Source: Gemmatimonadota bacterium
GTDB lineage: Bacteria; JBHIER01; G020348925
Direction: 5' to 3'
DNA length: 64,000 nucleotides
Assembly (NCBI GenBank): GCA_020348925.1
Contig: CP070758.1
Coordinates: 1,258,469-1,322,468, forward strand
A program made the position numbers and the translations under genes. Below are positions 14,108-47,416 of this stretch, piece by piece; the stretch's first letter is position 1, and each line of letters starts with the position of its first letter. The notes beneath the pieces were generated by a model. It was not told where the DNA came from. It did not search any database and saw nothing but the letters and a program-made list of their open reading frames with translations.

Positions 14108-14172
14108 ACGATGCAAAGCGAAAACAAGGTTCCGTCAACGTATTTTTATTTCACTTCAAAAGGAGACTCAGA

Positions 14173-16109: not shown

Positions 16110-16249
16110 GAGTGTTCCCTGTTGTTAGAGAAAAGGAGAGGATGAAAGAAAAAGGGAAATCCATTTCCTGTATTTTAAATTGAAATAAGGAGTGACAGTT
16201 GATATCATAAAAGTACGGATTCTCTTTGAAAAGAATGAGGAGATACGCA

Positions 16250-16360: not shown

Positions 16361-16448
16361 CAAAAAGTATGGTGAGGCGTCCGCCTCACCCGCACGGTCA
16401 ACATCGTGATATCCCAGGGAACATCAAACCGGCTCTTCGAGTAATTGG

Positions 16449-16679
16449 TTGGGGGAGCTTTGGAGGTCTGTACTGAGTATAAACCAGAATCGTTTTCATG
16501 ATCCACTTGTAGAAGGCGACTCTGAAACCCAAACAGTTGGATGCCGGAAATACAACTCAGAATCCTGTGGGAACAACGGTTTGTTTGGGAAGTGTGCCTT
16601 TACACGAGAGGATGGAATGTGCCTACTTCCACCAAGGTCATGGAAAAAACAGTACGCCAAGCTTCGCCTTTCGGCATGA
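16449..16679 (+). CDS. Small Cys-containing hypothetical protein (start uncertain)
   Basis: FHDPL..GDSETQTVGCR..N.ESC.NN....CAF.REDGMCLLPPRSWKKQY.KL reads as a natural four-Cys protein. Confidence 0.45.
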   Translation: MGELWRSVLSINQNRFHDPLVEGDSETQTVGCRKYNSESCGNNGLFGKCAFTREDGMCLLPPRSWKKQYAKLRLSA

Positions 16680-16949
16680 AGCTCCGGGAATCAGCGGTGA
16701 TTATCTCCCTAATTTCCTCATCCAACATACTTACCATTTAATGGAACGATGTCCCGGTCACATGCCTTTACTTGGGAAATTATGTATGTTCAAAGATGGT
16801 TTGCCTGTGATCGGAAAATCATCGAGATCGAAATCCCAGAAGCAGAGGTCGACAACCAATACCGCTTGGGACACCAAGAGCTGCACTACTGTATGTTGCC
16901 TTCTTCTGTTACCTTCCAGCGTAGCTCCACAGGTCCCGGAACCAGGCAA

Positions 16950-17048
16950 GGGGCGCGGGCTGGCTTCAATGGTGACAGTAACATCAACGTCCTGAATGCG
17001 TTGGGCATTGTGAACGTGATTCTGTGTTTTGGCGAGTGTGAACCCTGA
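16950..17048 (+). pseudogene. Degenerate dockerin C-terminal remnant
   Basis: RAGFNGDSNINVLNALGIVNVILCFGECEP* matches the second half of intact dockerins (ADCNGDGDIDLLDLIGIANVILGLGECEP*) but has lost its Asp Ca ligands. Confidence 0.7.
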
Positions 17049-17130
17049 TTTCTGTGATTCTTGGGGAAATATATCGATATAGTTCAAGATCCGACTGTAT
17101 ATATTTACTTTGATATTCCGCACATTGAGA
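17046..17130 (+). repeat. ~85-bp conserved element, copy 1
   Basis: TGATTTCTGTGATTCTTGGGGAAA..GTTCAAGATCCGAC..CTTTGATATTCCGCACATTGA. Begins at the stop codon. Confidence 0.75.
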
Positions 17131-17225
17131 TTAGGAGTTTAGAGAGCCGATAGAAAGAACTCGTTTTTGTCAAAAAACTCGCATTAGCTCGGTATGAAAA
17201 AAGGGTCCGACCAATAAAGAAGTTG

Positions 17226-17340
17226 AAATTGATGGTCACAAATTAATCACAAGAATATTGGCAGTTTTTTATCGTTTTTGTAACTCTTTGATAGACAAGT
17301 AAAAAAGTACACCTTCGTTGACTCATTTCGAACTCTTCTG
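17226..17340 (-). mobile_element. Second att-like remnant, inverted relative to 12012-12136
   Basis: The minus strand reads GAGTTCGAA..GGTGTACTTTTTTA..TATCAAAGAGTTA (IHF consensus WATCAA-N4-TTR)..TTGTGATTAATTTGTGACCATCAATTT, colinear with 12041-12136. Confidence 0.55.
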
Positions 17341-17420
17341 ATGGCTCCAAATGAGGAAATTGAGGCGACAATTGGGGCTTTTCATCAATTGGCCCTAATT
17401 TGAGAAAAGAATTTATACTC

Positions 17421-17507
17421 AGTCCAAAAGTGAAGAATATCAAAACAAAACTTGACTTTTGATTTTGGTTGAAAAATCAATGTTATCTCCAAAACTCACA
17501 GAAATCA
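17421..17507 (-). repeat. ~85-bp conserved element, copy 2
   Basis: Minus strand TGATTTCTGTGAGTTTTGGAGATA..CAAAATC..TTTGATATTCTTCACTTTTGGA. Starts at the stop of the 17505-18827 gene. Confidence 0.7.
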
Positions 17508-18827
17508 GGGTACACATTCACCAATTTCCAAAATCACGTTTACAATACTCACTAAATCAAGAAGATTAATTTCTCCATCATCATTGCAATCGGCTGCTAA
17601 TATCCCATCTCCTTCTAACGGCTGAGTTCCCAATATATGATTGACAGTGGTCAATACATCCAGAAGATTGATAGATCCATCGCCATTTACATCACCACGA
17701 ATACCAGTTCCACTACCATATTTGTATAGTACAACAAAACCTGTGTCAGAAGTACTGGAATTAAGCGATGCTCCGGTTGCGAAATTGGAGCCCATGGAGA
17801 AACCTAAACCAGTAATTGTAATATACCTATAGCCATCATTAATGTCTGCGAAGGAAACACCTAGAGCACCATCAAGCGAATCATCAATGACATGTTTCGT
17901 CCACAAGGGTGATTCATACCACATTACTTCACTTCTTCTTTCATTAGTAGCAATTATATCAAGATCATTGTCGTTGTCCAAATCGGCAAGAGATAATCCC
18001 CAGGGATAATCAAATGTCGCAATTATATTTATTGTCCATGTTGGATTAACATACCACCTAATCTGACCAGTGGTGGCATCACCAATGACAACATCTAAAT
18101 CCCCGTCATCATCTATATCTCCAACGCACACACTGTTCGCGTCATATGGATTGTTCTCGATAACATGAAAAGTCCATGAGGGATTTTCATGCCACCCCAA
18201 TGCATTTCCATTCATATAACTGAGTATGTCAATATCATTGTCGGAGTCCATGTCCGCAACTTGTGGGAATGCATAAGCGTTATTTGCTAAAGTATGTTCG
18301 ATCCAAGAAGGTGCTTCATACCAAACAAGTCGTTGTGACCCCGCTGCAACTATATCCAAATCACCATCTTTATCAAGATCCGCTACATCAACCGCCATAG
18401 CTCTTTTCAATGTATCAACAACATGTCGGGTCCAATTCGGGGCTTCATACCAGACGACTTCTCCCGCATTTATATTCCCTGCTACAATATCAACTTTGTT
18501 ATCGTCGTTTACGTCGATAACTTTACTCGCCCAACTAAAATCATCATCTATGGTTTTTTTTGTCCAAGATGGACCTTCATATAGGATAATCTCGCCATCA
18601 ACAGGATCTTGGAGGCCATTTATCAAATCCTGGTAACTAACTCTGGGAACTAGTATGTCCAAATTTCCATTTCCTCCAATATCGGCAGGAATTGGTATGA
18701 AAGGAATGTGTCCTAAAGTATCAATATTTATCCTAGTCCACTGGGCAAAAGACACATTAGAACTTGAGAATGACAAAGTAATAATAAGAACCAGGCTCGG
18801 AACGAGATGCTTATTTAGAATAGTCAT
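17505..18827 (-). CDS. Secreted FG-GAP/VCBS-repeat protein with C-terminal dockerin
   Basis: Signal peptide and repeated ADxDxDGDLDI..WYExPxW units. C-terminus RGDVNGDGSINLLD...ADCNDDGEINLLD...GECVP. AGGAGG RBS. Confidence 0.88.
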   Translation of the reverse strand: MTILNKHLVPSLVLIITLSFSSSNVSFAQWTRINIDTLGHIPFIPIPADIGGNGNLDILVPRVSYQDLINGLQDPVDGEIILYEGPSWTKKTIDDDFSWASKVIDVNDDNKVDIVAGNINAGEVVWYEAPNWTRHVVDTLKRAMAVDVADLDKDGDLDIVAAGSQRLVWYEAPSWIEHTLANNAYAFPQVADMDSDNDIDILSYMNGNALGWHENPSWTFHVIENNPYDANSVCVGDIDDDGDLDVVIGDATTGQIRWYVNPTWTINIIATFDYPWGLSLADLDNDNDLDIIATNERRSEVMWYESPLWTKHVIDDSLDGALGVSFADINDGYRYITITGLGFSMGSNFATGASLNSSTSDTGFVVLYKYGSGTGIRGDVNGDGSINLLDVLTTVNHILGTQPLEGDGILAADCNDDGEINLLDLVSIVNVILEIGECVP

Positions 18828-18854
18828 TTCTATTCCTCCTTTCAGCTCGGGCTA

Positions 18855-19027
18855 CGTTACAATATTGATGTGGTTCAGGTGGTGCCAGTGACTGACAGGT
18901 GAACCGTTGATATTAAGACGATTATACTGAGAAGTATGACAAAAGAGGTGTCGAGCAAAGTCTAGCACGGCTCGCCTGCATATTGCTATTCATAGATTGA
19001 AGGTATAAAGCTATTTGTAAATGTCAA
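18855..19027 (-). promoter_or_regulatory. Promoter plus structured 5'-leader motif (copy B)
   Basis: TTGACA-N16-TACCTT, then TGCAGGCGAGC..TTGTCATACTTCTCA..GGTTCACCTGTCAGTCACTGGCACCACCTGAACC. Homologous to 47417-47589. Confidence 0.6.
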
Positions 19028-19189
19028 GTATTATTTTGATGATTGATCTCAGGAGACTATCCGAAAAATAGATTTCCTGCACAATTCCTATTTCTCCAAT
19101 TTATGACGGTAACATTGATTCTTCAATTGATAACCAGAGTGCATATTTGTTTTGAAAATATGCATTTTTCAGAGCTTTTTTTCAATCCA

Positions 19190-19276
19190 TCTCCAAAAAC
19201 TACATGTTAGCAAAGAAAAATGCAATTCCGGATTTTGAACGATTGTACTGTTTTTCTCCAAGATTCACAGTAATCT
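19190..19276 (-). repeat. ~85-bp conserved element, copy 3
   Basis: Minus strand GATTACTGTGAATCTTGGAGAAA..ATCGTTCAAAATCCGG..TCTTTGCTA..TTTTTGGAGA. A further partial copy lies at about 19070-19114. Confidence 0.7.
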
Positions 19277-19465
19277 TCAGCACCTCTATCGTTGGATAAA
19301 AGCACCGCAGGGCGGTTTGACAGGTACTCCTGATAGCCCCTATCGGTGGGCCAATTCTGTAAACACGAATGCGTCATGCTTACAGTCCACCATCTTCATT
19401 ATAGTTGATACATTAGCTGTAATGAGCAGTGTGCCTCTACTCACTAATGTATTCTTAGGGCGCAC

Positions 19466-20314
19466 TTAATCCCTGACACAGCGAACCGAAAACCCATCTT
19501 GCTTACTGAGGTGAAGACGGGAGACGCTTGAACTGTCGTAACGCAGGGCCCGGCTCCACGCGTTGTAATTATCGAGCTCCGTAGATGAGTTAAAGAGGGC
19601 GGTGTTGCCCATACCGCTGAAGTTGCCACCTCCGCCGCGGGTACCGCCAGGCAACGCGGTAAAACCGCTTTCGTTGGTGGCTCCAGTGTTAGGGCTTTGC
19701 CAGTGCAATGTTCCACTTTCTTTCATTTTACCACCGGCAACAGAATCACCACCAAGATAGTCAATTAACGTTTGCCACTCATCATCACTAGGCATATGCC
19801 AGCCTTCAGGTGCCAAGCCTCTCGAATCATTTACTGCACTCCAGTTATACAGCAGTCCATAGGTGGCAATGTTATTCTCATCATTATCATAACTGGTGGC
19901 ATAGCTTATATAATCGCCATTGCGGTAGTGGGTGACTTTCAGATTCTCAGCCATCCATACTTGTGTACCAATGGTTATGGTTTGGTACACATTTCCATCG
20001 ATGTCGGTAACAGTCGTGCTGGGACAGGAATCAATACCCAGAGTAATATTTGCGATTTTCACTATATCAAATAAGTCTACAGTACCATCACCATTGCAGT
20101 TTCCTACAGAGGCATTACAGTCAGCTCTCCAAAATTCATCATTATCAGGCGTTTGAGTGCCTAAAACAATATTAACCGTTTCTAAAATATCCAATAGGTC
20201 TACCGTTCCGTCATTATTAACATCACCTTTTTCACCTTCATACGGTTGAGCTAACAGAGTAATGGGAAGATAAACCAAAAGGGCTATCACTAATATAATT
20301 GATCTGTATATCAT
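19466..20314 (-). CDS. Secreted protein: dockerin plus FISUMP (Fibrobacter major paralogous domain)
   Basis: Signal peptide, KGDVNNDGTVDLLD..CNGDGTVDLFD, then VTDIDGNVYQTITIGTQVWMAENL, YGLLYNW, GWHMPSDDEW and GFSVRCVRD. Confidence 0.9.
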   Translation of the reverse strand: MIYRSIILVIALLVYLPITLLAQPYEGEKGDVNNDGTVDLLDILETVNIVLGTQTPDNDEFWRADCNASVGNCNGDGTVDLFDIVKIANITLGIDSCPSTTVTDIDGNVYQTITIGTQVWMAENLKVTHYRNGDYISYATSYDNDENNIATYGLLYNWSAVNDSRGLAPEGWHMPSDDEWQTLIDYLGGDSVAGGKMKESGTLHWQSPNTGATNESGFTALPGGTRGGGGNFSGMGNTALFNSSTELDNYNAWSRALRYDSSSVSRLHLSKQDGFSVRCVRD

Positions 20315-20544
20315 TGGCGCACCTCATGGTTCGAGTGTTATCATTATATACCAACTGGATGATGAATCGAGGTGTGTTGCTCAACAAATCAATAATAGGA
20401 ATTTCGGGGGTGATTGTCAAGGACTTTTAATGGTTTTAACAGGGTTTCCGAATATACGAATGACGCTTCGTGATGTCAAGGGTTTCATCAAACTTCAAGG
20501 TGGGATGTGGAGAGGACCACTACATGTATGACCGGGCTGGTAAA

Positions 20545-20629
20545 ATCAAAAGTGAATACTATCAAAGATAACAAACGCTGTCGGATTTTGAACGATGCAA
20601 TTTGATTTCACCAAAAATGACGGAAATCA
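20545..20629 (-). repeat. ~85-bp conserved element, copy 4
   Basis: Minus strand TGATTTCCGTCATTTTTGGTGAAA..ATCGTTCAAAATCCGACA..TCTTTGATAGTATTCACTTTTGA. Starts at the stop of the 20627 gene. Confidence 0.75.
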
Positions 20630-23600
20630 CTTTAGCAGCAACATCCGTCTTGTCTCAAAAAATTCGGCAGCTTTCATTTGGCAAAAATAGATACCACTTG
20701 CTACATTACTACCATTCCAATTGACTACGTGGTAGCCTGCCTCGATATCGGAGTCAATCAGCACGTTAATCATCTGACCTAAGATGTTATAGATGCTGAT
20801 TGTTACTTTGGAGTTCCTGGGTAGGCTAAACTTAATTTCCGTCTCCGGATTAAAGGGATTTGGATAGTTCTGATACAAGGCAAAAGTCCTCGGGACCTGA
20901 GATACAACGCCATCCTGAATTCCTGTTGGAAATGTTATAATAATATTCCATAGAATCCATATCGTTTGATGGGTGTCGGAAACTTCCAACTCAATGGAAT
21001 GCGCTCCTACCGACAATTCCGTCGTCCCGATGCGGAGAATATGTTCTAATGCTCCCTCTATCATGATGCCATCGAGGAACCATGTATACGATAGGACATC
21101 ATCATTCAAGTCATACGCGCTCACTTCGAAAAGGAGGCTATCTCCCTGGACAAACGACAAGGTATCGCGTGTATCCGGAATGGTCAATAATATTTGAGGA
21201 GGCTGATTCTCTCCCAGAACCAGTCGGAATACTCCTTCCCCCCAGGTGGCAGCATAGATGACATTGCCGTCGGAAGAGATGGCCAGCTCGTTGATAGTTC
21301 GCATGGTGAGACCCTCATTGGCCATCAGCCAAGTGTTTCCTCCATCACTGGAGACGTAAAATCCCGAATGGAAATCCGCCGCATACATTGTCTGAGAGTC
21401 TGTTGGATCAAAGACGATGTCCCGGATCGATGTCCAGGGTACGGAGGTGTATTCCCCTCCCAGGGGGATATCCGGTGCCGGTCCAAGAGACACTTTTAGA
21501 TCAGTTCGACCAACGGGAAGCAAATACGACGGACACTCAATTTTCAATCCCGTATTCATCACATTCCATTGGTTGCCGCCGTCCGTACTCTTGAAGATAC
21601 CGGTACCGTCTCCCATACCGGCGAAAATCACCTGCGGATTGTCCGGATTGATGGCCAGTGAGCGAACATCGAGAAGCGGAGAGGCAAGACCGTTGTTTTT
21701 CGGCACCCAGCTCCCTCCACCGTCCGTGGTCTTAAAAACACCGTCACGCCACGTACCGATGTAGACGATGTCAGGATTTGTCGGATGGATATCGATGGTG
21801 TTGATGTTGAGATAGGCTGTATTCAGACCAGTATTGATTTCAAACCAGTTATCCCCACCATCCGTTGACTTGTACATCCCGTAACTCTTTCTGAGCGTCG
21901 GGAAGGTACCGTCAATAATACCCCGTGATGCAGCCATCCCGGCATATACGGTATCAGGATTGGAAGGGGCATAGGCGATTACTTTGAATCCATCATAGCA
22001 CATTTGCTCACGGGGCTGAAGTATGCAACTGTAACCGGCATCCGGATGGTCAAAAACCTTTTTCCAGTTTCCTCCGCCATTTGTACTCTTAAGGATAACC
22101 CCTTCTTGTTCATCTGAAATGAGCAATTCCTGCGGCTCATTTGGGTTTATTGCGACGGCATACCATTCAGGATAGGATGCAGGACTGTATGACATGCCTT
22201 CCCAGTTACTGCCTCCGTTGAAGCTCCGGAAAGGTCCACTCCGGCCGATTGCATAAACGATGGCTGGATTAGAGGGATGGACCTCAATATCAATCATCTT
22301 GGCTCCCGTGTATCCCCTGCTGGCATCTACCCACGTTGAGCCGCCATCGACCGACTTGAAATTGCCACCCTGATAATTGTTGATGAAGATCGTCATCGGA
22401 TCATTGGGGTGCACGACTGCACCGATGGGAACCCCGGCCCTTACTCCGGGCGGTCCCCAGTTGTTTTCGTTCTCCTTTCGGAACTTCTTCCAGGTATCGC
22501 CCCCATTATCGCTCCTGTATACAAAGGATGCACTTCCAGCATAGATAACGTTCGGATTGGAAGGGCTGAACGTTACTATCGTAAAAATATCGTCCGCCAG
22601 TACTTTCGACCAGTTCTGACCGCCATTTGTGGTTCGAAAGACACCTCCGTTGCCCCACGTGTTGTTTCCGGAGGCAGCGAAGAGTATCTGGGGATTGGTG
22701 GGATGCATCTCCAAAAAGCCTGTGAACAGGTACCCCAAGCTATCCGGTATACCATTATTTATCTGGAACCAGTTGTCACCCCCATCGGTTGACTTTAGAA
22801 TACCTACACCGGCTCCTTTGTAAGATTGATCCTCCCAAGCCTCCCTGTCAAAGATACCGGTCGATGCGTACATGATCTGTGGATCCAAATAGTCAAAAAG
22901 GACGAATCTGACGAGACTCTCATCAAACCAGACGCTGGACCAATTTTCCCCCTTATCAGTTGTCTTATAGATTTTCCCCCGTACCTGGCCGAAGGCCTTT
23001 CCCCAGCGCCCTGTATTGATCTCTGCGCCAGCAAATACGATGTTTGAATTTGATGGATGAACACCAAAGCCGCGGAAGGAAATTTCGTTTCCCTCGGTAA
23101 CACCGTCATCCTTTTTTACCCAGCTTTCACCGCCATCAGTCGACCTGTAAATACCCTTGGCGTTTTGGGTTCCCGCCCAGATGTTGTTTGGATTGCTGGG
23201 ATCGATGGTCAGGGAGAAGATGGGAATCTCATCCATTGAGGAGCCCGTTCGGGTTACGATGTCTGTGTTTCGTTGAATCCAGTTCTCACCACCATCGTAG
23301 CTCTTGTTGACACCGCTGGGATTATCCGTCACAAACATGATATCGCTGTCGGTTGGATGGATGCGGACGTCGTAGCCCAATCCTCCGCTCGGTCCTCCCG
23401 TACGATACCAGTGATACCCCAAGGCCGCCGGGGTGACCGGCCCGTACACAGAGATGTCGTCGATGTAAACTTGAGAATCGTCCAGTGTTTCATAGGCAAA
23501 GCCACCGGATAGGATCGGTCTGCCCTCCGTGTCGACCACTTCCGCCTGGAGCTGCTCATCGATGTATACCTGAATGTTTGGTCCGACAACTTGGATGGCA

Positions 23601-24091
23601 ATAGTGTACCACATTTCAGGACTGAACTCAATATCCATGGCGTAGAGATCATAGAAATTCTGGTCCATTTGTTTTTTTACATATAACCGCCCGGCTTTCA
23701 AGCCGAGATAATACCTGAACATCACCCATTGGGTTTCCGAAACGTTCTGCATCGAATAGCGGAAATTGATATGAAGTGTTCCCTCGGTGATTTTAACATC
23801 CTGGACGATTTCATAGTCGGCCCAGCCTTCCACCATCGGTATGGCCCAAGTCCGGCTCATGCCGCTGAGAATACCTCCCCGACCCATCTCCTCGGTGACA
23901 AACCATCCCTCCCTCAAATCCCATCGGTCAAGAATCTGCTCTTCAAAATTCTCCTGGAAGAGTAACTCCCATTCCCTCTGGGCTTCGACCGTCGAAGAAA
24001 GGAGAAATCCCCAAACAAGCACCCACACCAAGGGGAAAAGAACAAGAGAACAACCAAAAAATTTCCTGCCCTGCACATTTCGTGTTTTCAT
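20627..24091 (-). CDS. Large secreted protein: ConA/LamG-like domain, BNR/VPS10-like Asp-box propellers, Ig-like domain and T9SS-type C-terminal sorting domain
   Basis: Many (K/R)STDGGxxW Asp-boxes. C-terminus LYQNYPNPFNPET..IYNILGQ..SGIYF..RRMLLLK. GGAGGA RBS before the ATG at 24091. Confidence 0.88.
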   Translation of the reverse strand: MKTRNVQGRKFFGCSLVLFPLVWVLVWGFLLSSTVEAQREWELLFQENFEEQILDRWDLREGWFVTEEMGRGGILSGMSRTWAIPMVEGWADYEIVQDVKITEGTLHINFRYSMQNVSETQWVMFRYYLGLKAGRLYVKKQMDQNFYDLYAMDIEFSPEMWYTIAIQVVGPNIQVYIDEQLQAEVVDTEGRPILSGGFAYETLDDSQVYIDDISVYGPVTPAALGYHWYRTGGPSGGLGYDVRIHPTDSDIMFVTDNPSGVNKSYDGGENWIQRNTDIVTRTGSSMDEIPIFSLTIDPSNPNNIWAGTQNAKGIYRSTDGGESWVKKDDGVTEGNEISFRGFGVHPSNSNIVFAGAEINTGRWGKAFGQVRGKIYKTTDKGENWSSVWFDESLVRFVLFDYLDPQIMYASTGIFDREAWEDQSYKGAGVGILKSTDGGDNWFQINNGIPDSLGYLFTGFLEMHPTNPQILFAASGNNTWGNGGVFRTTNGGQNWSKVLADDIFTIVTFSPSNPNVIYAGSASFVYRSDNGGDTWKKFRKENENNWGPPGVRAGVPIGAVVHPNDPMTIFINNYQGGNFKSVDGGSTWVDASRGYTGAKMIDIEVHPSNPAIVYAIGRSGPFRSFNGGSNWEGMSYSPASYPEWYAVAINPNEPQELLISDEQEGVILKSTNGGGNWKKVFDHPDAGYSCILQPREQMCYDGFKVIAYAPSNPDTVYAGMAASRGIIDGTFPTLRKSYGMYKSTDGGDNWFEINTGLNTAYLNINTIDIHPTNPDIVYIGTWRDGVFKTTDGGGSWVPKNNGLASPLLDVRSLAINPDNPQVIFAGMGDGTGIFKSTDGGNQWNVMNTGLKIECPSYLLPVGRTDLKVSLGPAPDIPLGGEYTSVPWTSIRDIVFDPTDSQTMYAADFHSGFYVSSDGGNTWLMANEGLTMRTINELAISSDGNVIYAATWGEGVFRLVLGENQPPQILLTIPDTRDTLSFVQGDSLLFEVSAYDLNDDVLSYTWFLDGIMIEGALEHILRIGTTELSVGAHSIELEVSDTHQTIWILWNIIITFPTGIQDGVVSQVPRTFALYQNYPNPFNPETEIKFSLPRNSKVTISIYNILGQMINVLIDSDIEAGYHVVNWNGSNVASGIYFCQMKAAEFFETRRMLLLK

Positions 24092-24176
24092 GATGACTCC
24101 TCCAATCGATAGGGGTAAAAGGGAACAATCGGTGCATCGGTCACACCGCATCACAGCCGCCAAAGTGCAACGCAAG

Positions 24177-25445
24177 TTACCTCAGGAGCACCATTCTCCT
24201 GGTATCAGAATAGGGGCCGGATTCGATTCTATACAGATAGACACCGCTGACGACCTGACTCCCAGCACTATTCCTCCCATCCCATGTAACAGTGTAATAT
24301 CCTGGCTGTTGAACCTCATCCACCAATGTCCGCACCTCCTGCCCGAGGATGTTGTAGATTTTCAGGGTTGTGTGAACAGGGGATCCACTCTCCCCAATCC
24401 CGTCCCGGGATCGGGACGGGGCCGGAATCTGGTATCTGATATCTGTTTTTGGATTAAAGGGATTTGGATAGTTCTGCGACAATGAGTAAGAGCTGGGCAT
24501 GAGGGAAGCGGCCACATCCTCTTCCTCCACCTTCACACCCTTTGTTATTTTAAACCGAAAATCCCATCCGACCCCGGCAGTATAGGTTGTCATATAATAA
24601 CCGACCAATTCAAAGTCTTTGTAGGCATACAGGCTGAATTCATAATGTTCATTGTCACTGCTTTCTTCAAGACTTGCGGAGTATGACGATGAGGAAACAT
24701 CCGCCCCCAAGGCCAGCTCAATAAGCCCGTACCCGCTTGGATGATCCGAATCCCGGTATTTATAAATTGAGATCTGATACCTCGTCGCAGAGGGAATCGA
24801 ATCCCACGAAAAGGTTACAGGACTCAAATACGCTGGATATGGCTCTCCCATTGAAAATTCCGTACTGTTGTTATCCCAGGGTTGCGTTACATGCATGATC
24901 TGTTGCAGCCTGATGTCATAATTTCTTCTCTCTGATTCTGAGAGAAGCGAAAGGTCTACTATTATCCAAGTGCGGTAGTTACCCGGGAGCGAATCTTCTG
25001 ATCCTGTGGTATGAAAAGAAATTGATATACCAATTTCCTTTGAGGGCAGGTTACTGAATGTGTAGTTACCGTTTGCGGAATTATAGGTTGTTGTCGCATC
25101 AGGATATTCCATTCCGGTTACTTCATCCCTGAACCAAAAAGAGGGCTGAACACTCGTCAGAGTCGACATAGGCGTTCCGGCGAAATGGAGTTGGCCCTCC
25201 AGGGTCAACTGAGACTCACTTGAATTTCCCTTTCTAACGACTGTGAATGTTGCGATTTTCATTGCATGTCTATCAGTCGAAGAATTGATTTCCCCCTTCG
25301 TCATTTCGGTTTCATAGCGGCCTAATTCTGTACCATCTCGAGTGCTAGCACTGGAACTCTCTGATTTTTTCTCCTGGGCATATAAAAAAGTCTGTACCAG
25401 AAGCAAAAGGACAATCCCTGCTATCCATAGTATCCTTCTTAACAT
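24177..25445 (-). CDS. Secreted protein with an FN3-like domain and a FlgD-Ig/T9SS-type C-terminal domain
   Basis: Signal peptide, TFSWDSIPSATRYQI and LSQNYPNPFNP..WDGRN..SGVYLY..RRMVLLR. Confidence 0.82.
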   Translation of the reverse strand: MLRRILWIAGIVLLLLVQTFLYAQEKKSESSSASTRDGTELGRYETEMTKGEINSSTDRHAMKIATFTVVRKGNSSESQLTLEGQLHFAGTPMSTLTSVQPSFWFRDEVTGMEYPDATTTYNSANGNYTFSNLPSKEIGISISFHTTGSEDSLPGNYRTWIIVDLSLLSESERRNYDIRLQQIMHVTQPWDNNSTEFSMGEPYPAYLSPVTFSWDSIPSATRYQISIYKYRDSDHPSGYGLIELALGADVSSSSYSASLEESSDNEHYEFSLYAYKDFELVGYYMTTYTAGVGWDFRFKITKGVKVEEEDVAASLMPSSYSLSQNYPNPFNPKTDIRYQIPAPSRSRDGIGESGSPVHTTLKIYNILGQEVRTLVDEVQQPGYYTVTWDGRNSAGSQVVSGVYLYRIESGPYSDTRRMVLLR

Positions 25446-25514
25446 AGCCCACCTCCTATTTTATAGTAGCGAAAGAGGGAGTAATTGCACTTATAAAATA
25501 TTATTGCAACGCTT

Positions 25515-25599
25515 TACTAAAGTGATGAAAATCAAAGATATTTTTAAGTGTCAGATTTTGAACAATATTGATAAAGTACCCCAAATATTTCAATAATCA
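25515..25599 (-). repeat. ~85-bp conserved element, copy 5
   Basis: Minus strand TGATTATTGAAATATTTGGGG..ATTGTTCAAAATCTGACA..TCTTTGATTTTCATCACTTTAG. Confidence 0.68.
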
Positions 25600-25673
25600 A
25601 GGTTCATATTCACCAATTCCTAGATTGTATTGAATAGTGTGCCTCTGCTCACTAATGTATACTCTGGGCATAA

Positions 25674-27479
25674 TCAATCCTTCACACACCGAACCGATAA
25701 CCCAGTTCGCTTATCGCTGCTGCCACCGCGGAAGACCATTGAATTAAAGTAACCCAGGGACCGGGACCAACCTTGATAACTATTGCTATCTGTCGAACAC
25801 CAGAAGGCGGCGAAGCTGCCCATAACAGCGAACTTCCCATCCCAGTGGCGGCTGCCACCAGGCAACGCGGAAAAACCGCTTTCGTTTGTGGCTCCGGTGT
25901 TAGGATCCTCCCAATGCGCTGTACCGGTTTCTTTCAGTTTGCCACCTTCATCTGTCCCACGCAATCCAGCAGCATCAGCTTCCTCCTGGCTCATACCCAA
26001 ATACATTTCCAGTTGCTTCCACTCATCATCACTGGGTACATGCCAACCACCGGGAGCAATATTTCCACTGTCGTTTACTGCATACCAGTTGTACAATCGC
26101 CCATATGTGGTTGCATTATTAGAATTGTTTTCATAATTGCAGTACGCCCCGGTTGACAGATTGCTCCAATCTGTGGAATCTGTGATTATGGGTATTGTCG
26201 CACCATTGCGGAAGCGGGTTACTTTCAGGTTCTCGGCCATCCATACTTGTGTACCAATAGTTACGGTTTGATATACATTTCCGTCTATGTCGGTTACGGT
26301 ATTGCCGCCTGTTGATATGGTGAAAGTTGAAATATTTGACCAGTAACCCCAATTGCCATGGTGTCCCTTAGCACGGACCTTCCAGTGATAAGTGTCGTTT
26401 GAAAGTGAAATGGGAGACAGATATATCGATTCTTCGAGATCACTTTGGTGGATTTCTGGATTGCTGCTAAAATCGTTGGTGTTGTCTACAATTAGCTCGT
26501 ACGCAATAGCGCCCACAATGTCATCCCATTCAAAGATGGGATTTATGTCACTTATTGTGCTCTCATTGGATGGTAAGATTAACTCAGGAGTTTTCGGTAC
26601 TGGAAATGTGACTATAATGCTACCAACAAGATCTCCATCAGGGCTACTCATTATGTGATAAACATCATAGTGATCAGGTTCTTCCCAGCCTGAAATCTCT
26701 CCCCATACATCACTTATTGTGCCTGCATAGTCTGAGATAGCACTTCCGAATGTTCCAACTCCTGCTAATTCCATTATGAAGAGATATATTTCGCTCTGAG
26801 CGTCAATTTCTTCCTTGGTGAATCTTCCTATCTCTATCCAGTTCTCACTATTTTCAGCATGTTCGATAAAATTTTGAATGGCTTGACCTTCATCAGACGA
26901 GTTTTCGATCACGCTAAATTCCGGTTCACAGGAAGTGTTCAATGAACAAACAGCAATATCGTGTGTGCTATTATGGGAATATATTTTTAAAGAGGCTTTG
27001 TAGTTAACGCTTTCATCTTCAACGATGAATACCTCGCAATCATCATAATCCCAAAACCATACATGCAAATCAGGAACCGGATCACCGCCAAGGTTTCTAA
27101 CGCGAACTTCAACTTGTTCGTCGGTAGAATTATCTGTAAAGTGTACTATCCCATCTTGGTCTGTGGTTCCTTCTTTGATTAACTTGCGACACTCATCATT
27201 CCCAAGAATGATATTTGCAATTTTCACTATATCAAGCAAGTCAACATTTCCATCTCCATTACAATTGCCCATTGATGCATTACAATCAGCTCTCCAAAAT
27301 TCATTGTTGTCAGGCGTTTTAGTTCCTAAAACAATGTTAACCGTTTCTAAAATATCCAAAAGGTCTACCGTTCCGTCATTATTAACATCACCTTTTTCGC
27401 CCTCGTACGGCTGAGCCAAGAGATTAATGGGGAGGCATACTAAAAGGGCAAATACGAGTACTATTGATTTGAAGATCAT
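25674..27479 (-). CDS. Secreted protein: dockerin, central region, FN3-like domain and FISUMP domain
   Basis: Signal and dockerin nearly identical to the 19466-20314 gene. PELILPSN..PIFEWD..YHWKVRAK FN3-like segment. FISUMP motifs end in GLSVRCVKD. Confidence 0.9.
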   Translation of the reverse strand: MIFKSIVLVFALLVCLPINLLAQPYEGEKGDVNNDGTVDLLDILETVNIVLGTKTPDNNEFWRADCNASMGNCNGDGNVDLLDIVKIANIILGNDECRKLIKEGTTDQDGIVHFTDNSTDEQVEVRVRNLGGDPVPDLHVWFWDYDDCEVFIVEDESVNYKASLKIYSHNSTHDIAVCSLNTSCEPEFSVIENSSDEGQAIQNFIEHAENSENWIEIGRFTKEEIDAQSEIYLFIMELAGVGTFGSAISDYAGTISDVWGEISGWEEPDHYDVYHIMSSPDGDLVGSIIVTFPVPKTPELILPSNESTISDINPIFEWDDIVGAIAYELIVDNTNDFSSNPEIHQSDLEESIYLSPISLSNDTYHWKVRAKGHHGNWGYWSNISTFTISTGGNTVTDIDGNVYQTVTIGTQVWMAENLKVTRFRNGATIPIITDSTDWSNLSTGAYCNYENNSNNATTYGRLYNWYAVNDSGNIAPGGWHVPSDDEWKQLEMYLGMSQEEADAAGLRGTDEGGKLKETGTAHWEDPNTGATNESGFSALPGGSRHWDGKFAVMGSFAAFWCSTDSNSYQGWSRSLGYFNSMVFRGGSSDKRTGLSVRCVKD

Positions 27480-27586
27480 TGGCACACCTCAACAAGTAAG
27501 AAATTTAATATTAGACAAAGAAGCCTGTACACAATCAAGAATAGTATAATTTCAGGAGTATGTCAAGGGGAAATAATAGCCCTACC

Positions 27587-27750
27587 AAAATTGTGACCAA
27601 TTTGTGACCATAACGATGTGAAAACATCGGAAAAGATGGGAAAAGACAAGAAAAGCAAATCCAAATTAAATCATTATGATTCTCTGTAGTTACATGAATC
27701 ACTTGGATTTATCGGAATCGTCTTTTTCGGATATCTTATCCGAGGCGATT
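27587..27750 (+). mobile_element. Third att-like remnant (arm repeats followed by a symmetric core)
   Basis: TTGTGACCAATTTGTGACCA (27591-27610), then ATCGTCT..TCGGATA-TCT-TATCCGA (about 27718-27744). The core is shared with 12012-12034. Confidence 0.55.
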
Positions 27751-28193
27751 AATTCAAAAATTTTACTGCTTATAGAAATGATATATTTTGATCATCAGGC
27801 CAAAGAACCTCTTTATTCTGGGGCAGAGGCCCAATAAAATTCTGCATTGGGATGTGCATCCCAGGATTATCTCATGAGATATTGTTGACTTCCTCAAGTA
27901 TTCTACTCGAGATGCGTTCTCGAGGTATACATGAATCCCCATCAATTTCAATGAATTCGCCTCAAGCCTCTTTTACAATATTTTCCTTGACAAACAATAA
28001 TAATAGCGCTTATTTAGTAAAGATATAGAAAAATCACCTTTTATAAATAGGGAGGTGATGTATATCCGATCTTTGTCAATGCTTACACCTTTTTTGTTCA
28101 CTTTACAGGATTTATCTTTGGGATTGTGTGCAGAACAAAACAATCCGGGAGAATTTTATCGTCACAATAATTCCTTCAATCAGGAGGTGTCTC

Positions 28194-30086
28194 ATGTTAA
28201 GAGTTTTTCTTATGTCTGCGGCAGTGGTCCTTTGCGCATCCGCTCTCGTTGCCCAGGATGCGATCTGGCAGCAGGAATATCAGGCCAGTCTTGAGGGGGA
28301 GATGACGTGTGCTTATTCCGGAGGATTCCAGTACGCCAAGCCGGTTTTGGTTGATATCGACGACGATGGTGATCTCGACCTCTTTGTCGGAGAGCGCTAT
28401 ATGGGTATCGATTTTATCCGTAATGACGGTGATGGGACGCATCCTCTGTGGACCTTTGTTGATAGGAGTTTTTTACCGCTTTACGGTGATTACTTTGCGC
28501 CGTCTTTTTGCGACATCGATGCGGACGGTGATCAGGATGCGTTCATCGGCAGCTGGGACGGCCAGATACGGTACTATCGGAACAACGGCAACAGCACTTC
28601 GCCGATCTGGACCCTGGAGACGGAAATGTTTGATTCCATAAAAGTGGAATATCATTCGACACCCACTTTCTGCGACATTGATGCTGACAGCGATTACGAT
28701 CTGTTTCTCGGAACGAACGAAGGAAATGTCCACTTCTACCGAAATGATGGCACGCCCGCGGTTTACTCCTTCACTCTTGTGGACGAATTCTACGTTACAG
28801 CCGCGTCAGGACAATACGGTCCTCCGACATTTGCCGATATAGACAATGATCTTGATTACGACCTGTTTGTCGGAACGAATCGGAATCTCTATTTCTTTCG
28901 AAATGAGGGCGATCCAATCAATAGCGCGATGACATTGGAGTCCACACGATATGCCGATATCAGGACAATGCATAACTGTTACGCAACTTTTGGGGATATT
29001 GACAGCGATGGGGATCTGGACTTGCTCCTGGGTGATGCCTTTGTGGGGCTCACGTACTATAAAAATATTGGAAATGCGGATTCGGCCGCCTGGCAGCTGG
29101 CCGATGAATTCTACGCGACTATCGACGTGACCTACCCTGGCTATCCTGCCATTGCGGACATTGACGGGGACAGTGATTTCGACCTGTTCATGGGGAGATA
29201 TTATGATGGCATTTACATGTTTACAAACGCGGGAACAAGGAGAGCCGAGGCCTGGGTCCTCCAACAGGACGTTATAGTGGAACAAGGGAGTCTCCCGGCA
29301 TTGTGTGATATTGACGGCGATGATGATCTCGACCTTTTTTGCGGTCACATCAATGGAACGCTCCTTTTCTATGAAAACATCGGTACCGTCCAGGAGCCGC
29401 TTTGGGCAGACGCTGTGGAAAATTATAACAGTATTAATACCGGGGATTATTGCTCGCCGGTATTCTGCGACATAAATGATGATGGTGATTTTGACCTCTT
29501 TGTCGGCAAAGGAGACGGCACGCTCAGTTATTACGAAAATACCGGAGATGCCACCTCCCCACAGTGGGCGGTAGCTGATCCCTTTTACTTCCAGATCGAT
29601 CCTGGGGCGAGAAGTAAACCCGAATTCTGTGATATCGATCGAGATGGAGACTTCGATCTTTTCATAGGAAAAAATGACGGAAGGATTTCCTTTTATAGAA
29701 ATGAAGGGAACGTGAGCTCACCCTCATTCACACTGGAAACCGCATACTATGATTCAATTCAATTTCAAGGACAACTGAAGCCGGTTTTCGCCGACATCGA
29801 TGGAGACGGTGATCAGGATCTTTTCGCAGGTGACGAAGATGGTGGCCTGCACTTCTGGCGGAATTTGATTTTGGAGCCTCAGGCGATAGCACGCGGCGAC
29901 TGCAACGGCGACGGGGATGTCGATCTTCTGGATATCATAACATCGGCCAACCACATTCTTGGATTCACGACCCTTGTGGGGGACGTCCTCTGGGCGGCCG
30001 ATTGCAACGATGACGGTGAAATCGATCTTTTCGATCTCATCGGCATTGCCAACGTGATTCTGGGTCTGGGCGAATGCGAGCCGTGA
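28194..30086 (+). CDS. Secreted FG-GAP/VCBS-repeat protein with C-terminal dockerin
   Basis: AGGAGG RBS, signal peptide, about 11 PxFxDIDxDGDxDLFxG..YxNxG repeats, and RGDCNGDGDVDLLD..ADCNDDGEIDLFD..GECEP. Confidence 0.9.
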   Translation: MLRVFLMSAAVVLCASALVAQDAIWQQEYQASLEGEMTCAYSGGFQYAKPVLVDIDDDGDLDLFVGERYMGIDFIRNDGDGTHPLWTFVDRSFLPLYGDYFAPSFCDIDADGDQDAFIGSWDGQIRYYRNNGNSTSPIWTLETEMFDSIKVEYHSTPTFCDIDADSDYDLFLGTNEGNVHFYRNDGTPAVYSFTLVDEFYVTAASGQYGPPTFADIDNDLDYDLFVGTNRNLYFFRNEGDPINSAMTLESTRYADIRTMHNCYATFGDIDSDGDLDLLLGDAFVGLTYYKNIGNADSAAWQLADEFYATIDVTYPGYPAIADIDGDSDFDLFMGRYYDGIYMFTNAGTRRAEAWVLQQDVIVEQGSLPALCDIDGDDDLDLFCGHINGTLLFYENIGTVQEPLWADAVENYNSINTGDYCSPVFCDINDDGDFDLFVGKGDGTLSYYENTGDATSPQWAVADPFYFQIDPGARSKPEFCDIDRDGDFDLFIGKNDGRISFYRNEGNVSSPSFTLETAYYDSIQFQGQLKPVFADIDGDGDQDLFAGDEDGGLHFWRNLILEPQAIARGDCNGDGDVDLLDIITSANHILGFTTLVGDVLWAADCNDDGEIDLFDLIGIANVILGLGECEP

Positions 30087-30172
30087 TATTCGGATTTCTT
30101 GTCGCGACAGAGTGTTTTCCGTACTAAGGTGAAACCATAAACCATGAGATATTAAACGAAAGGGGGTTTGTC

Positions 30173-31090
30173 ATGAGGAAACAAATTCTTGTCGTATCTC
30201 TCCTCATAGGAGTTTTTCTGCTTCACACGGGATTGTGGGGGCAATTGTTTGAAGAAAACTTTGATTACCTTGCAGGAGATGCGCTGACCGATCATGGCTG
30301 GACACAAATTCGATCGGGCACTCCGATAACAGTTTCAACTCCGGGTCTAACATATCCGGGTTATTCACTCTCAAGCATAGGTAATGCTGCCTCGCTAGTT
30401 ACGGGTAACGGACAAGAGGTAAAAAATACATTCACCGAGCAAACGAATGACAGTCTTTATGTCTCATTTCTGATCAATGTCGGTGAGGCAACTACTGCGA
30501 ACGATGGCATATACTTTTATTTAGGTCCAACAGATATAAGTATCTTTAGTCGGCGATTGACCGCTTACGTCAGAAAAGATACCTCGGACAACTTAGCCTT
30601 TGGTGTTGCAAAAAACAGTGGTATCGGCTTTACAGGTTTTTCGTATTCAATGAATACGACACATCTCATTGTGATGAAATACAAATTTAATCCCGATACA
30701 GATGATGACGAAGTAAGTTTGTGGGTGGATCCGTTATTATCAGGTTCAGAACCTCCTCCGGATCGAACGATATCAAGCGGGAGTGATGCATCGGAGCTTG
30801 CAGAGATTGTACTCTCTCAACTCACAGCGAGTAACACTGCCCCGACAGCAGAGGTAGATGGTATACGAATAACCACCAGCTGGTTTGAAGGCCAAAGAGG
30901 CGACTGCAACGGTGACGGGGATGTCGATCTCCTGGATATTATTACGGCGGTGAATCACATTCTGGGGGTTACGGTTCTTGAGGGGGTTGATCTCTGGGCG
31001 GCCGATTGCAACGGCGACGGTGACATCGACCTCCTGGATCTCATCGGCATTGCCAACGTGATTCTGGGCCTGGGCGAATGCGAGCCGTGA
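30173..31090 (+). CDS. Secreted beta-sandwich (ConA-like) protein with C-terminal dockerin
   Basis: Signal peptide, LFEENFDY..LIVMKY..VSLWVDP..VDGIRITTSW, and a dockerin ending GECEP. Confidence 0.85.
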   Translation: MRKQILVVSLLIGVFLLHTGLWGQLFEENFDYLAGDALTDHGWTQIRSGTPITVSTPGLTYPGYSLSSIGNAASLVTGNGQEVKNTFTEQTNDSLYVSFLINVGEATTANDGIYFYLGPTDISIFSRRLTAYVRKDTSDNLAFGVAKNSGIGFTGFSYSMNTTHLIVMKYKFNPDTDDDEVSLWVDPLLSGSEPPPDRTISSGSDASELAEIVLSQLTASNTAPTAEVDGIRITTSWFEGQRGDCNGDGDVDLLDIITAVNHILGVTVLEGVDLWAADCNGDGDIDLLDLIGIANVILGLGECEP

Positions 31091-31177
31091 TTTTTTGTGA
31101 TTTTCGAGTCGAACCTCAGAAGGGCTCAATATTGGGGGTGAAAATTCTGAAGAAGGTCTTGTAATGGAGGATCCCTT

Positions 31178-31969
31178 GTGAAACGGTTCTTTATCCCTTT
31201 CCAGATGGTCTTAGCTATCGTTGTGATTGTAACGTGCCCTGTACGGGATGCTGGGGCCACCAATGCACTCTCTGTTGTGAGCAATACTTATCCTTCGGGG
31301 ACGAGGGCAATTGAGGTCGCCGTAACCCTGACCAATGACGACGCCGTCTGGGGGGTTCAATTTTATCTCCGCGATACACCGGATGTATTTACTGGGGATT
31401 CGGTATTGTCATTACTGGAGGATGATGATTTTGTGGTTCAAGGGAATGATGTTGGCGGTGTGTATCGTGTCATCTTCCTCAACATCTCGCTGAACGATAT
31501 ACCATCAGGATCTTTTCAGACGATTTGTACAGTACAATATACTGTGGAGCCGGAATTTCAAGGGGCCGTGGAGTTGGATCTTTCGAATATTGAATTGATA
31601 AACAGGCACGGTCAATATATGGATGTGGTGACTTCAAAGGGAGTGATCACCATTGGTGGTAGTACGTATCTCACCGAGGACATAACCATCGGAGAACATT
31701 TCCCAGCATCCTTCTTGCTTATGCAGAATGCACCGAATCCATTCAATTCCGAAACAAGCATCACTTTCGGGTTGCCTGTGAGTACAAGGGTAACGCTCAC
31801 GATATACAACCTCTTGGGTCAGGCGATGCAGACGTTGGTCGATTCAGAATTGACCCCCGGTTATTTTACCATCCCTTGGAATGTCCAGGATACTCCAAGT
31901 GGTGTCTACCTGTACACGATGAAAGCAAACGGTTTTCAAGAGACAAAAAGAATGCTCCTGCTGAGATGA
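31178..31969 (+). CDS. Secreted cohesin-like domain plus T9SS-type C-terminal sorting domain (mini-scaffoldin candidate)
   Basis: GGAGG RBS, GTG start and signal peptide. IEVAVTLTNDDAVWGVQFYL..IPSGS..ICTVQYTV..LDLSNIEL..SKGVITIG follows the cohesin beta-sandwich pattern. QNAPNPFN..KRMLLLR. Confidence 0.7.
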   Translation: MKRFFIPFQMVLAIVVIVTCPVRDAGATNALSVVSNTYPSGTRAIEVAVTLTNDDAVWGVQFYLRDTPDVFTGDSVLSLLEDDDFVVQGNDVGGVYRVIFLNISLNDIPSGSFQTICTVQYTVEPEFQGAVELDLSNIELINRHGQYMDVVTSKGVITIGGSTYLTEDITIGEHFPASFLLMQNAPNPFNSETSITFGLPVSTRVTLTIYNLLGQAMQTLVDSELTPGYFTIPWNVQDTPSGVYLYTMKANGFQETKRMLLLR

Positions 31970-32053
31970 TTCCTCCTCAATTTGGTTGAATCCGTAGAAC
32001 TTTCCATGATGTTGTGAATACCTCAATACTCTTTGAAATCCTTCCCCTTTGAC
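31967..32053 (+). repeat. ~85-bp conserved element, degenerate copy 6
   Basis: TGATTCCTCCTCAATTTGGTTGAAT..TCTTTGAAATCCTTCCCCTTTGA. Starts at the stop codon, with the second sub-site 67 nt later. Confidence 0.5.
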
Positions 32054-32370
32054 AACCATCGGTCTTTAAGTTCGCATTTTCGAATTCATAAAATTACCCG
32101 GACGTCAGGTTCCAAGTGAGTCGATTTGAACTCACTTTTTCCGTTTGTGTGTCCAAAAGGATTCTCTATGATTCTTTTGAATGCCGTATTGTATGGTGGC
32201 CACGAGATGAGATGTTTCTTCTAATATGTTGCAATAGAGAGCATTCGGTTAATGATCTTAAATAGTGTTCTGACGAAAATGGACTGGCATGCTATTTGCA
32301 AATAGTTTTTCGTTACGACGCGGTTTTGAACAACAAGAGGGAAAAAACGTGAAATGGTAAGGAGGTCCAC

Positions 32371-47198: not shown

Positions 47199-47416
47199 CC
47201 CCAATAATTCAGCTTTCATTCTCACCACCCCCCCACTCCTTTTTGCCACCCCATCCCGACCACTATAGACGATTCAAGAGTGCTTGTTCTCAAAGATAAT
47301 ATTGACTTTTGATTAAAGCATAGAATTGAATATTTCTGCCACAAAATGGAGAAATAAGGTTTCCACAGAAAAATCTATTTTCGAATTGCCTCCAGAAATC
47401 AATCATAAAATATTGC

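Follow-up and report, generated by a model that had tools for sequence, protein, structure and literature searches.

The closest described systems to the one presented here are the miniature inverted-repeat transposable elements (MITEs) and the ERIC-type repeats, reviewed by Delihas (2008; PMC2229807, used here in excerpt), with a further excerpted source on small bacterial repeats (PMC3184786). We have analyzed a 64-kb stretch of the chromosome of a Gemmatimonadota bacterium (64,000 nucleotides of contig CP070758.1, positions 1,258,469 to 1,322,468, called here the window), in which copies of a bipartite element are located near, and in some cases exactly at, the stop codons of genes for secreted proteins with a dockerin or a type IX secretion system (T9SS) sorting tail. 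The original prediction, made from the letters of this window, had taken the element for a recombination site or a transposon end that might build an array of surface-protein cassettes. Our preferred reading, based on sequence comparison and held with a probability of about 0.5, is that this is a lineage-specific short interspersed repeat similar to MITEs or ERIC, the blocks of which would be held by a putative protein that binds double-stranded DNA, and whose link to stop codons would be historical.

Like ERIC/IRU (127 bp), YPAL/RU-2 (168 bp) and the MITEs, as they appear in the excerpted review (PMC2229807), the element is shorter than 200 bp, non-coding, present in tens of copies and mostly intergenic. 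As in ERIC and YPAL, there is a long imperfect-palindrome form (here of 188–190 bp) and the location is often near gene ends (same excerpt, PMC2229807). YPAL is described there as having internal inverted repeats and no TA termini, with a mobility that was inferred without experimental proof. Unlike ERIC, YPAL and the MITEs, here we find mostly single arms without terminal inverted repeats, no target duplication, no stable stem-loop, and an abutment to stop codons that affects almost only two classes of secreted-protein genes (17 of 19 cases). The CerM-associated CIR of Caulobacter, also in the excerpt of PMC2229807, is partly MITE-like, is never found in genes, has conserved motifs and moves by an unknown mechanism; its sequence is unrelated to ours, and the exposed GANTC methylation motif and the armed RNA fold that define it there were not seen here. 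The Correia or NEMIS repeats of Neisseria (~100–155 bp, near gene ends and co-transcribed) carry in their 155-bp form a motif for IHF (PMC2229807, in excerpt), which shows that repeats of this type can contain sites for proteins, but we have found none of the 26-bp terminal inverted repeats, TA target duplications and long RNA hairpins described for them. REP/BIME are dispersed extragenic palindromes, often at gene 3' ends and often in inverted pairs, that go with RAYT (Y1) transposases (PMC3733652, in excerpt); the REP palindromes are of 20–40 bp and stable, whereas those of our element are AT-rich and weak.

The element failed formal tests for a MITE (target duplication, terminal inverted repeats on single units), for a REP (stable palindrome, cognate RAYT), for a structured RNA and for a res, att or attC site, and it has therefore been filed as a variant of the interspersed-repeat kind. 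The res sites of the Tn3 family and the attC sites of integrons measure ~60–120 bp and consist of various imperfect inverted repeats that keep a fixed distance from one another. The attC sites are located just after the open reading frames (ORFs) of the cassettes and in gene sense. Both kinds of site need an adjacent resolvase or integron integrase and are found either single per element or in arrays of one direction, and attC works as a folded single strand with conserved extrahelical bases. Unlike them, our element has neither the recombinase, nor the array, nor the folded strand.

Copies and anatomy of the repeat

The whole window was scanned, unfiltered, with R1, a sequence-only covariance model of 45 copies. 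Of six full copies that had been claimed five were recovered (E 8e-21 to 1e-14), and the sixth (31967, plus strand) turned out to be decayed (E 0.58); in an alignment of the six, five were clearly similar and the sixth far weaker. By eye, this last one keeps the block order of the others with a longer middle which, together with its R1 value, makes it a decayed relic that is not significant alone. The 17-mer core has four matches in the window at no more than 3 mismatches, when 0.41 were expected, a number that was reached in 0 of 100 shuffles. As for the two partial copies also claimed, the one at 19070–19114 belongs to a nearly full inverted copy (19090–19173, plus strand, E 3e-8), and the one at 31088, directly after the stop of the dockerin gene 30173–31090, was not significant. 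The features are as follows.

17046..17130 (R1 match 17045–17130), plus strand: copy 1, R1 E 3.7e-19
17423..17507 (R1 match 17423–17508), minus strand: copy 2, R1 E 1.1e-17
17505..18827, minus strand: dockerin-tail gene whose stop is the first triplet of copy 2; 440 aa, FG-GAP, with Dockerin_1 at the C-terminus (Pfam)
19090..19173, plus strand: inverted, more decayed partner arm of copy 3, nearly full, R1 E 3.4e-8
19191..19276, minus strand: copy 3, one arm of a tail-to-tail dimer, R1 E 4.6e-16
20545..20629 (R1 match 20545–20630), minus strand: copy 4, R1 E 7.8e-21
20627..24175, minus strand: T9SS sorting-domain gene that takes its stop from the first triplet of copy 4; 1182-aa Sortilin/BNR protein with Por_Secre_tail (Pfam)
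25515..25599 (R1 match 25515–25601), minus strand: copy 5, R1 E 1.2e-14
31088..31115, plus strand: possible 5'-block remnant, seen by eye and not significant (R1 31092–31115, E 0.92; 5'-block score -13)
31967..32053, plus strand: claimed copy 6, a decayed relic (R1 fragment only, 32029–32052, E 0.58; 5'-block score 6.9)
47274..47357 (R1 match 47274–47345), minus strand: additional copy outside the range claimed at first, R1 E 1.4e-9 (genome copy 1305821, minus strand)

The window sits in a closed genome of 5.04 Mb. An nhmmer profile seeded with the five window copies and iterated over it gave 37, 60 and 68 matches at E<=1e-4, and at E<=1e-3 the family amounts to 75 copies (70 by R1). Scanning the genome and its relatives with a profile, as the original prediction had suggested, gave ~75 copies here and a few weak ones in a genome of the same family. 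The repeat unit measures ~82 nt, is non-coding and intergenic, and appears in both orientations and in all classes of intergenic space. It starts with a 5' block, TGAWTTCTGTnAnTyTTGG..GAAA, that is an imperfect palindrome, goes on with a middle of which there are at least two versions, one with ATCGTTCAAAATCCGnCAGTG and the other with GAAACAttGAC..., and finishes with a 3' block, AAAGTG-N4-TTnTC-TTT-GAnAA-N4-CACTTTTGG, that makes a second imperfect palindrome. The first triplet is TAA rather than TGA in 8 of the 75 units, two of them at intact gene stops. The ends are sharp: homology among many unrelated loci begins no more than ~3 nt from the TGA and stops near +80–90 (in dimers, at ~+189). 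Around 20 units are disposed tail to tail with a conserved spacer of ~30 nt, and there are six dimers of 188–190 bp. Inverted ends are present only in dimers (6–8 units, ~20 of the 75 arms), and in single units the two end blocks are direct, not inverted, repeats of each other (11 of 19 nt, consensus compared by eye). A +1 reading frame through the unit was considered and discarded, as TAA or TGA closes it in many copies (alignment read by eye).

The copies are not evenly distributed along the chromosome. Cumulative GC skew points to an origin close to coordinate 0 and a terminus at about 2.66 Mb, and 58 of the 75 copies are within 1.5 Mb of this skew-inferred origin; over the 3 Mb around it the copies are three to four times as dense as in the 1.5–4.0 Mb stretch. 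We have rejected a chromosome-organising site, since the copies showed no strand polarity and were not depleted at the terminus.

Register with the stop codons of secreted-protein genes

The most unusual property of the element is its exact register with the stop codon in two unrelated classes of secreted-protein genes and in two genera. In the window, and as was originally noticed, its TGA is the stop codon of genes 17505–18827 (minus strand), 20627–24175 (minus strand) and 31178–31969 (plus strand, at copy 6, coding for a 263-aa protein with Por_Secre_tail by Pfam). At copy 1 the TGA closes a 99-codon dockerin-tail remnant (16749–17048, ...NVILCFGECEP), for which Pfam gave no match. For the complete genome we used a crude gene set of 3446 non-overlapping ORFs of at least 100 codons, in which our own regular expressions recognized 156 T9SS-type tails and 38 dockerin tails of the G-x-C-x-P type, and the 5' block was counted as being at the stop when its score was at least 8. 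It was found exactly at the stop in 10 of the 156 genes with a T9SS tail, 7 of the 38 with a dockerin tail and 2 of the 3252 others. With 17 of the 19 cases in these two classes, stop abutment is nearly exclusive to them. At thirteen copies an open frame of 165 to 2000 codons takes its stop (TGA, in two cases TAA) from the element, and all 13 frames end in a tail of T9SS type (8) or dockerin type (5).

Genes without the element are the majority in both tail classes, and the majority of its copies are located elsewhere. When the frames upstream of all the copies were read by eye, T9SS tails were found at 11 of them (9 clear, 2 degenerate) and dockerin tails at 17 (12 clear, 5 short or degenerate). 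By the same reading 28 of the 75 copies are joined to tail-coding sequence, many of them gene-less fragments, and by count ~47 of the 75 are joined to none. The claim that every copy follows a dockerin or sorting-domain gene has to be abandoned for these ~47 copies, and also inside the window, where copies 3 and 5 trail Fib_succ_major genes in which the dockerin is N-terminal (Pfam). Copy 3 is 190 nt beyond the stop of one of them (19466–20314, minus strand). Copy 5 is 75 nt beyond the other (25674–27485, minus strand) and abuts an 8-residue dockerin-tail remnant, LGIGEYEP.

We give about even odds to a historical account of the stop association, made of early placement, co-duplication and decay. 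A unit starting with TGA or TAA would have landed at the stop of early members of two expanding gene families, and would then have been copied along with the tails and have decayed since after most of the paralogues. In one group of four T9SS paralogues (tails 80–91% identical) two have the full unit and two only its first 25–36 nt, and a dockerin paralogue with a tail 84% identical to that of a carrier has a colinear but decayed copy. We have also built a FastTree tree of the 156 T9SS tails, using the last 80 residues of each. To account for the 12 genes that carry the element, or what remains of it, at the stop, this tree requires 9 state changes, and shuffled labels gave 10–12 changes in 299 of 300 trials. 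The clustering is thus slight, and either the unit was lost in many lineages or it was gained repeatedly. A different proposal, that we find quite unlikely, is a cis-element for a lineage-specific factor that would mark the 3' boundary of surface genes, be it as an anchor, through homology and protein binding, for the swapping or copying of C-terminal sorting tails between genes, or as a stop-adjacent signal coupling translation termination or mRNA fate to export; in both variants the copying that produced it would have left the many free copies as a by-product.

Two minor points concern the stop codon itself. TGA is the stop of 25 of the 38 dockerin tails, compared with 1466 of the 3446 ORFs in total. 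Selenocysteine recoding (UGA plus a hairpin, with the dockerin tail read as C-E-P-U) was tried and rejected: units with TAA exist, and the T9SS tails have no cysteine there.

Probable constraint on the two blocks

The mean pairwise identity of the copies is about 0.6–0.64, with 19 columns that are at least 90% invariant next to columns without a majority base. The 65-nt spacing between the two TGA-containing sub-sites, seen first in the window, is maintained over the genome. Of 67 copies, 51 have exactly this distance and another 7 have 64 nt, despite ~36% of substitutions, and there are almost no indels. As a reference, the last 84 coding nt of the carrier paralogues had identities of 0.64 (T9SS) and 0.66 (dockerin), compared with 0.66 in both classes for the 84-nt element, and the 84 nt that start 95 nt downstream gave 0.47–0.51 vs. 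0.48 for random 84-mers. The class of the upstream gene makes no difference to the identity of the elements (T9SS-T9SS 0.639, dockerin-dockerin 0.638, cross-class 0.635), and 0 of the 7 T9SS-linked copies tested had a T9SS-linked nearest neighbour. This class-independent identity, the conservation at the level of coding sequence, the fixed spacing and the recurrence in a sister genus argue against a merely passive flank, which the element nevertheless is in part, as the T9SS and dockerin paralogues described above show. Passive 3' flanks of duplicated genes with uniform decay, the outcome that was to speak against the original prediction, are not what we have found, so that in this respect too the element appears to be more than a passive flank.

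The family might also be a neutral relic, an old MITE-like or segmental duplicate whose block pattern would derive from subfamilies and from the bias of profile searches. Decayed or truncated copies are indeed found beside intact ones, pairs of copies share on average only ~0.6 identity, the enzyme families searched yielded no partner, and the distribution over intergenic classes is typical of selfish repeats. We consider this explanation unlikely, given that the element is conserved to the same degree as the coding tail and that 95 nt downstream the identity has dropped to that of random sequence, that ~36% of substitutions came with almost no indels, and that the blocks are recognisable in another genus and in the same context. 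If the family were only a relic it would still be useful as a strain-typing marker, besides being a known source of breaks when these genomes are assembled, and otherwise ordinary.

A constraint of this type could act on RNA or on DNA. A search of Rfam 15 at E<=1 gave only a sub-threshold group-II-intron match at copy 3 and nothing relevant at five other loci. That match (group-II-D1D4-2, window 19247–19352, minus strand, 26 bits for a gathering score of 36, E 0.11) lies partly on copy 3 and partly in the DNA upstream of it, and was taken as chance. The folds of whole units are weak, with a mean of -15.2 kcal/mol and a z of -0.46 vs. 30 mononucleotide shuffles each (n=58), and RNAalifold on the profile alignment found no consensus structure. 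In the two palindromes 70.3% of the cells are paired, which falls to 37–46% with the partner slid. Shuffling the partners leaves 69.6 +/- 0.7% (89 of 500 shuffles reach 70.3%), indicating that pairing stems from the consensus and not from compensation. The covariation score was 0.161 vs. 0.148, with 33 of 500 shuffles as high and no compensatory changes, and in an alignment-free comparison the own arms of a copy paired no better than arms from different copies (-4.80 vs. -4.63 and -5.03 vs. -4.71 kcal/mol, n=54). The hairpins have means of -3.9 and -4.6 kcal/mol (z ~ -0.6 to -1.1), reach -8 or lower in only 6 of 58 copies (3' palindrome), are AT-rich, and are followed by TTTT in 29 of 58 copies. 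A role as terminator was rejected because they are too weak. Other T9SS genes of the organism do carry canonical G+C-rich terminators; within 100 nt they were present in 29 of 147 T9SS genes without the element and in 0 of 14 carriers, small numbers in any case. Among the element-less genes with dockerin tail, 0 of 33 had a strong canonical terminator within the same distance.

The orientation of the copies was also examined. In 48 of the 75 the orientation agrees with that of the gene on the 5' side (p 0.02), a bias that vanishes when the 13 stop-abutting copies are removed (35 of 62, p 0.37). By intergenic class, 29 copies are convergent and 14 divergent, and the tandem ones divide into 19 co-oriented and 13 anti-oriented. 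Taken over all classes, the copies that are anti-oriented to the gene on their 5' side are not significantly more decayed (37.7 vs. 41.8 bits, p 0.12). Taken together, the results of covariation, folding and orientation favour a constraint acting on double-stranded DNA, and since there is no covariation of the RNA type a protein-bound site is the most economical reading. The part of the original prediction that saw in the fixed spacing and variable interior a site for a protein has held up in so far as the spacing is real and looks constrained, and the part that made of it a res or att site or a transposon end has not. The blocks and their 65-bp spacing would be kept by a putative protein on double-stranded DNA, either an architectural or regulatory factor of the host or what was formerly a transposase. 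If the constraint is real, we would have a compact cis-element, bipartite and without a hairpin, that is exclusive to a sediment lineage of the FCB (Fibrobacteres-Chlorobi-Bacteroidetes) type for which sampling is poor. It would point to a DNA- or RNA-binding factor, and perhaps to a route by which sorting tails plus their 3' flanks travel through surface-protein families.

The same data bear on a module of the 3' untranslated region acting in the RNA and co-transcribed with the gene before it, in which a weak hairpin starting 1–2 nt past the stop, conserved single-stranded blocks or both would bind a protein or RNase and affect mRNA stability or termination-coupled translation of the secreted-protein genes, the free copies being strays. 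In its favour, all 13 stop-supplying copies are co-oriented (by definition) and in one fixed register, the U-G/U-A alternations of the 5' palindrome pair only on the sense strand and make it more stable there, the combination of tail and 5' block recurs in a second genus, and carriers are without the canonical terminators found after other T9SS genes (0 of 14 vs. 29 of 147, with the same caution about numbers). But covariation is absent, the hairpins amount to only -4 to -5 kcal/mol, there is no Rfam family, and 27 of the 75 copies have the orientation opposite to that of the gene upstream (14 of them between divergent genes) and are not significantly more decayed. We consider this module somewhat improbable. 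In Escherichia coli, REP hairpins at no more than ~15 nt from the stop codon reportedly lower translation, a result attributed to Liang, Rudd and Deutscher in 2015.

Several observations weigh against an interspersed repeat with protein-held blocks and a historical stop link. The 5' palindrome is rich in G-U and folds better in the sense strand (-5.03 vs. -3.93 kcal/mol, and -15.2 vs. -12.8 for whole units), and this stability of the sense strand fits an RNA role in the gene-attached copies. Comparison of the blocks by eye with consensus sequences of known operators, a weak test, gave no convincing fit for CRP/FNR, Fur, IHF, the DnaA box or parS/Noc. Profile searches favour copies that keep the blocks, so that the block pattern is partly an effect of ascertainment. 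A purely historical link requires very many losses, or repeated gains precisely at the stop codon, and nothing that we have found explains the exactness of the register. As to mobility, no transposase with matching ends appeared among the four families searched (Y1_Tnp, DDE_Tnp_1, rve and DDE_3), there was no flanking direct repeat (target duplication) at 8 dimers, and no empty site was found, the sole candidate paralogous site being a decayed copy. With transposase, duplication and empty site all missing, past mobility is inferred only from the sharp boundaries and the dispersal of the copies.

Possible mobility, distribution and neighbouring modules

The original model was a res-, att- or attC-like site, or a transposon end, that moves or assembles surface-protein cassettes. 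The two palindromic blocks at fixed spacing and of about the size of a res site agree with it, and so do the 28 of 75 copies joined to T9SS or dockerin tail sequence, gene-less fragments included, as well as one contig of a related strain (run X5) whose match to the reference stops at 17118, where copy 1 has its 3' end, and from which no conclusion was drawn. For Phage_integrase the genome has only two Pfam matches, in open frames of 301 and 328 codons, and for Resolvase only one, all of them at least 36 kb from any copy. The ~75 copies are scattered over the whole chromosome on both strands and do not bound cassettes of the same direction, which is hard to reconcile with an array builder, and 146 of the 156 genes with T9SS tail and 31 of the 38 with dockerin tail have no element at their stop. 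We have also looked at contigs from four other DNA runs of sediment metagenomes at window positions 14001–34000, which are short and mixed with relatives. The joints in them connect only two Fib_succ_major paralogues, two dockerin ends or two copies of the repeat, as would be expected of any repeat or paralogue, and therefore they do not show rearrangement. The cassette-recombination idea is thus not supported, and a recombination site of this type seems to us highly improbable.

For the interspersed repeat that we prefer, the family would have spread in an ancestor as a non-autonomous mobile or duplicative unit and would now be largely immobile. The four transposase families gave 2 matches to Y1_Tnp, 2 to DDE_Tnp_1, 2–3 to rve and 0 to DDE_3, the nearest ~7 kb from a copy (coordinate comparison). 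The co-occurring recombinase or transposase that was to be looked for, according to the original prediction, did not appear among the families searched; these genes are few in the genome and none is within ~7 kb of any copy. Both Y1_Tnp genes (IS200/RAYT-type, open frames of 323–338 codons) are flanked by their own inverted repeats, in a layout like that of REP transposases.

L002 584–683 and 2027–2133; L001 872–911 and 1997–2036 (genome ~1.246 Mb and ~4.954 Mb): repeats flanking the Y1_Tnp genes

A 29-nt repeat at the first of these loci has 14 copies in the genome, and R1 found nothing better than E 0.38 near the two. Unlike REP, then, our element has no cognate RAYT, both genes having different repeats at their sides. 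A link to the Y1 transposases was rejected, since the only thing that the flanking repeats share with the 3' block is the word ATCTTTGAT, taken as chance.

Outside this genome the element is scarce. Among 60 other genomes, R1 had 2 matches at E<=1e-3 and 5 at E<=1 in the only one of the same family (G001, 87% complete, a sister genus), and an unrelated genome gave a weak partial match, apparently by chance. In G001 one dockerin tail and one T9SS-like tail have the 5' block 1–2 nt past the stop, and the 3' block alone is found at a third site. The dockerin tail that precedes the 5' block in contig C422 (L069 1560–2648, minus strand) is out of frame with the upstream 236-codon ORF, which suggests a frameshift or an error of the draft assembly. 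A degenerate 24-nt pattern of the 5' block had 0 matches in the collection of genome contigs and 1 in the metagenome contigs, the latter without the rest of the unit and taken as chance. R1 on 36 loci that encode distant relatives of the copy-2 gene gave 0 matches at E<=1. In full-text literature searches we found only general reviews of small repeats, and nothing on a repeat tied to the ends of T9SS or dockerin genes.

The units are frequently accompanied by other repeated sequences. By count, ~38 of the 75 are followed at fixed polarity by one of three partners, namely an inverted unit, a module of ~110–200 nt or a module of ~45 nt. Given these recurrent partners, the intergenic regions are a mosaic in which the same modules are used repeatedly. 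The fixed polarity is also what would be expected of an upstream promoter or operator, with the 3' block just before the start of small ORFs, non-coding RNAs or the next gene, and one copy lies ~270 nt upstream of a tRNA gene while two precede an AGGAGG-ATG start ~220 nt off. We find this possibility very doubtful, as the downstream gene is co-oriented in only 33 of the 75 copies and at 50–1263 nt, tail-to-tail dimers would fire into each other, and no consistent -35/-10 pair or Bacteroidota -33/-7 pair could be recognized (consensus sequences compared by eye); there are good TTGACA-17-TATATT promoters beyond copy 4, not inside it. Sigma-70, Bacteroidota -33/-7, sigma-54 and ECF (extracytoplasmic function) promoter motifs were compared to the blocks in the same way, a weak test, and rejected for want of a convincing fit.

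The ~110–200-nt module has 8 copies (E 1e-16 to 9e-59), mostly directly 3' of the 3' block of the element. It contains an AAGGAG box and then a frame of 20 codons started by GTG, the length and stop of which are kept in 3 of 5 aligned copies (by eye). It had no Rfam match and no covariation, and one copy is located ~70 nt upstream of a tRNA gene. The copies of this module are the following.

L043 603–783, L044 571–752, L045 581–778: genome 964402, 973370 and 4839480
L046 563–760, L047 700–830 (minus strand): genome 181862 and 4261629
Further copies: genome 601842, 463514 and 1791129

The ~45-nt module, with TATATAGTG (...GTAyCnATCTyCCCyAATATATAGTGCTCTTCTC), appears ~35–45 nt beyond the element in about ten copies, at these genome sites.

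50001 (minus), 2831634 (plus), 4316637 (minus), 1131515 (plus), 647657 (minus)
4272891 (plus), 4309315 (plus), 777001 (plus), 2755060 (minus), 4320270 (plus)

In two of them an AGGAGG-ATG gene start is found ~170–220 nt further on, and this module may be a promoter or leader region.

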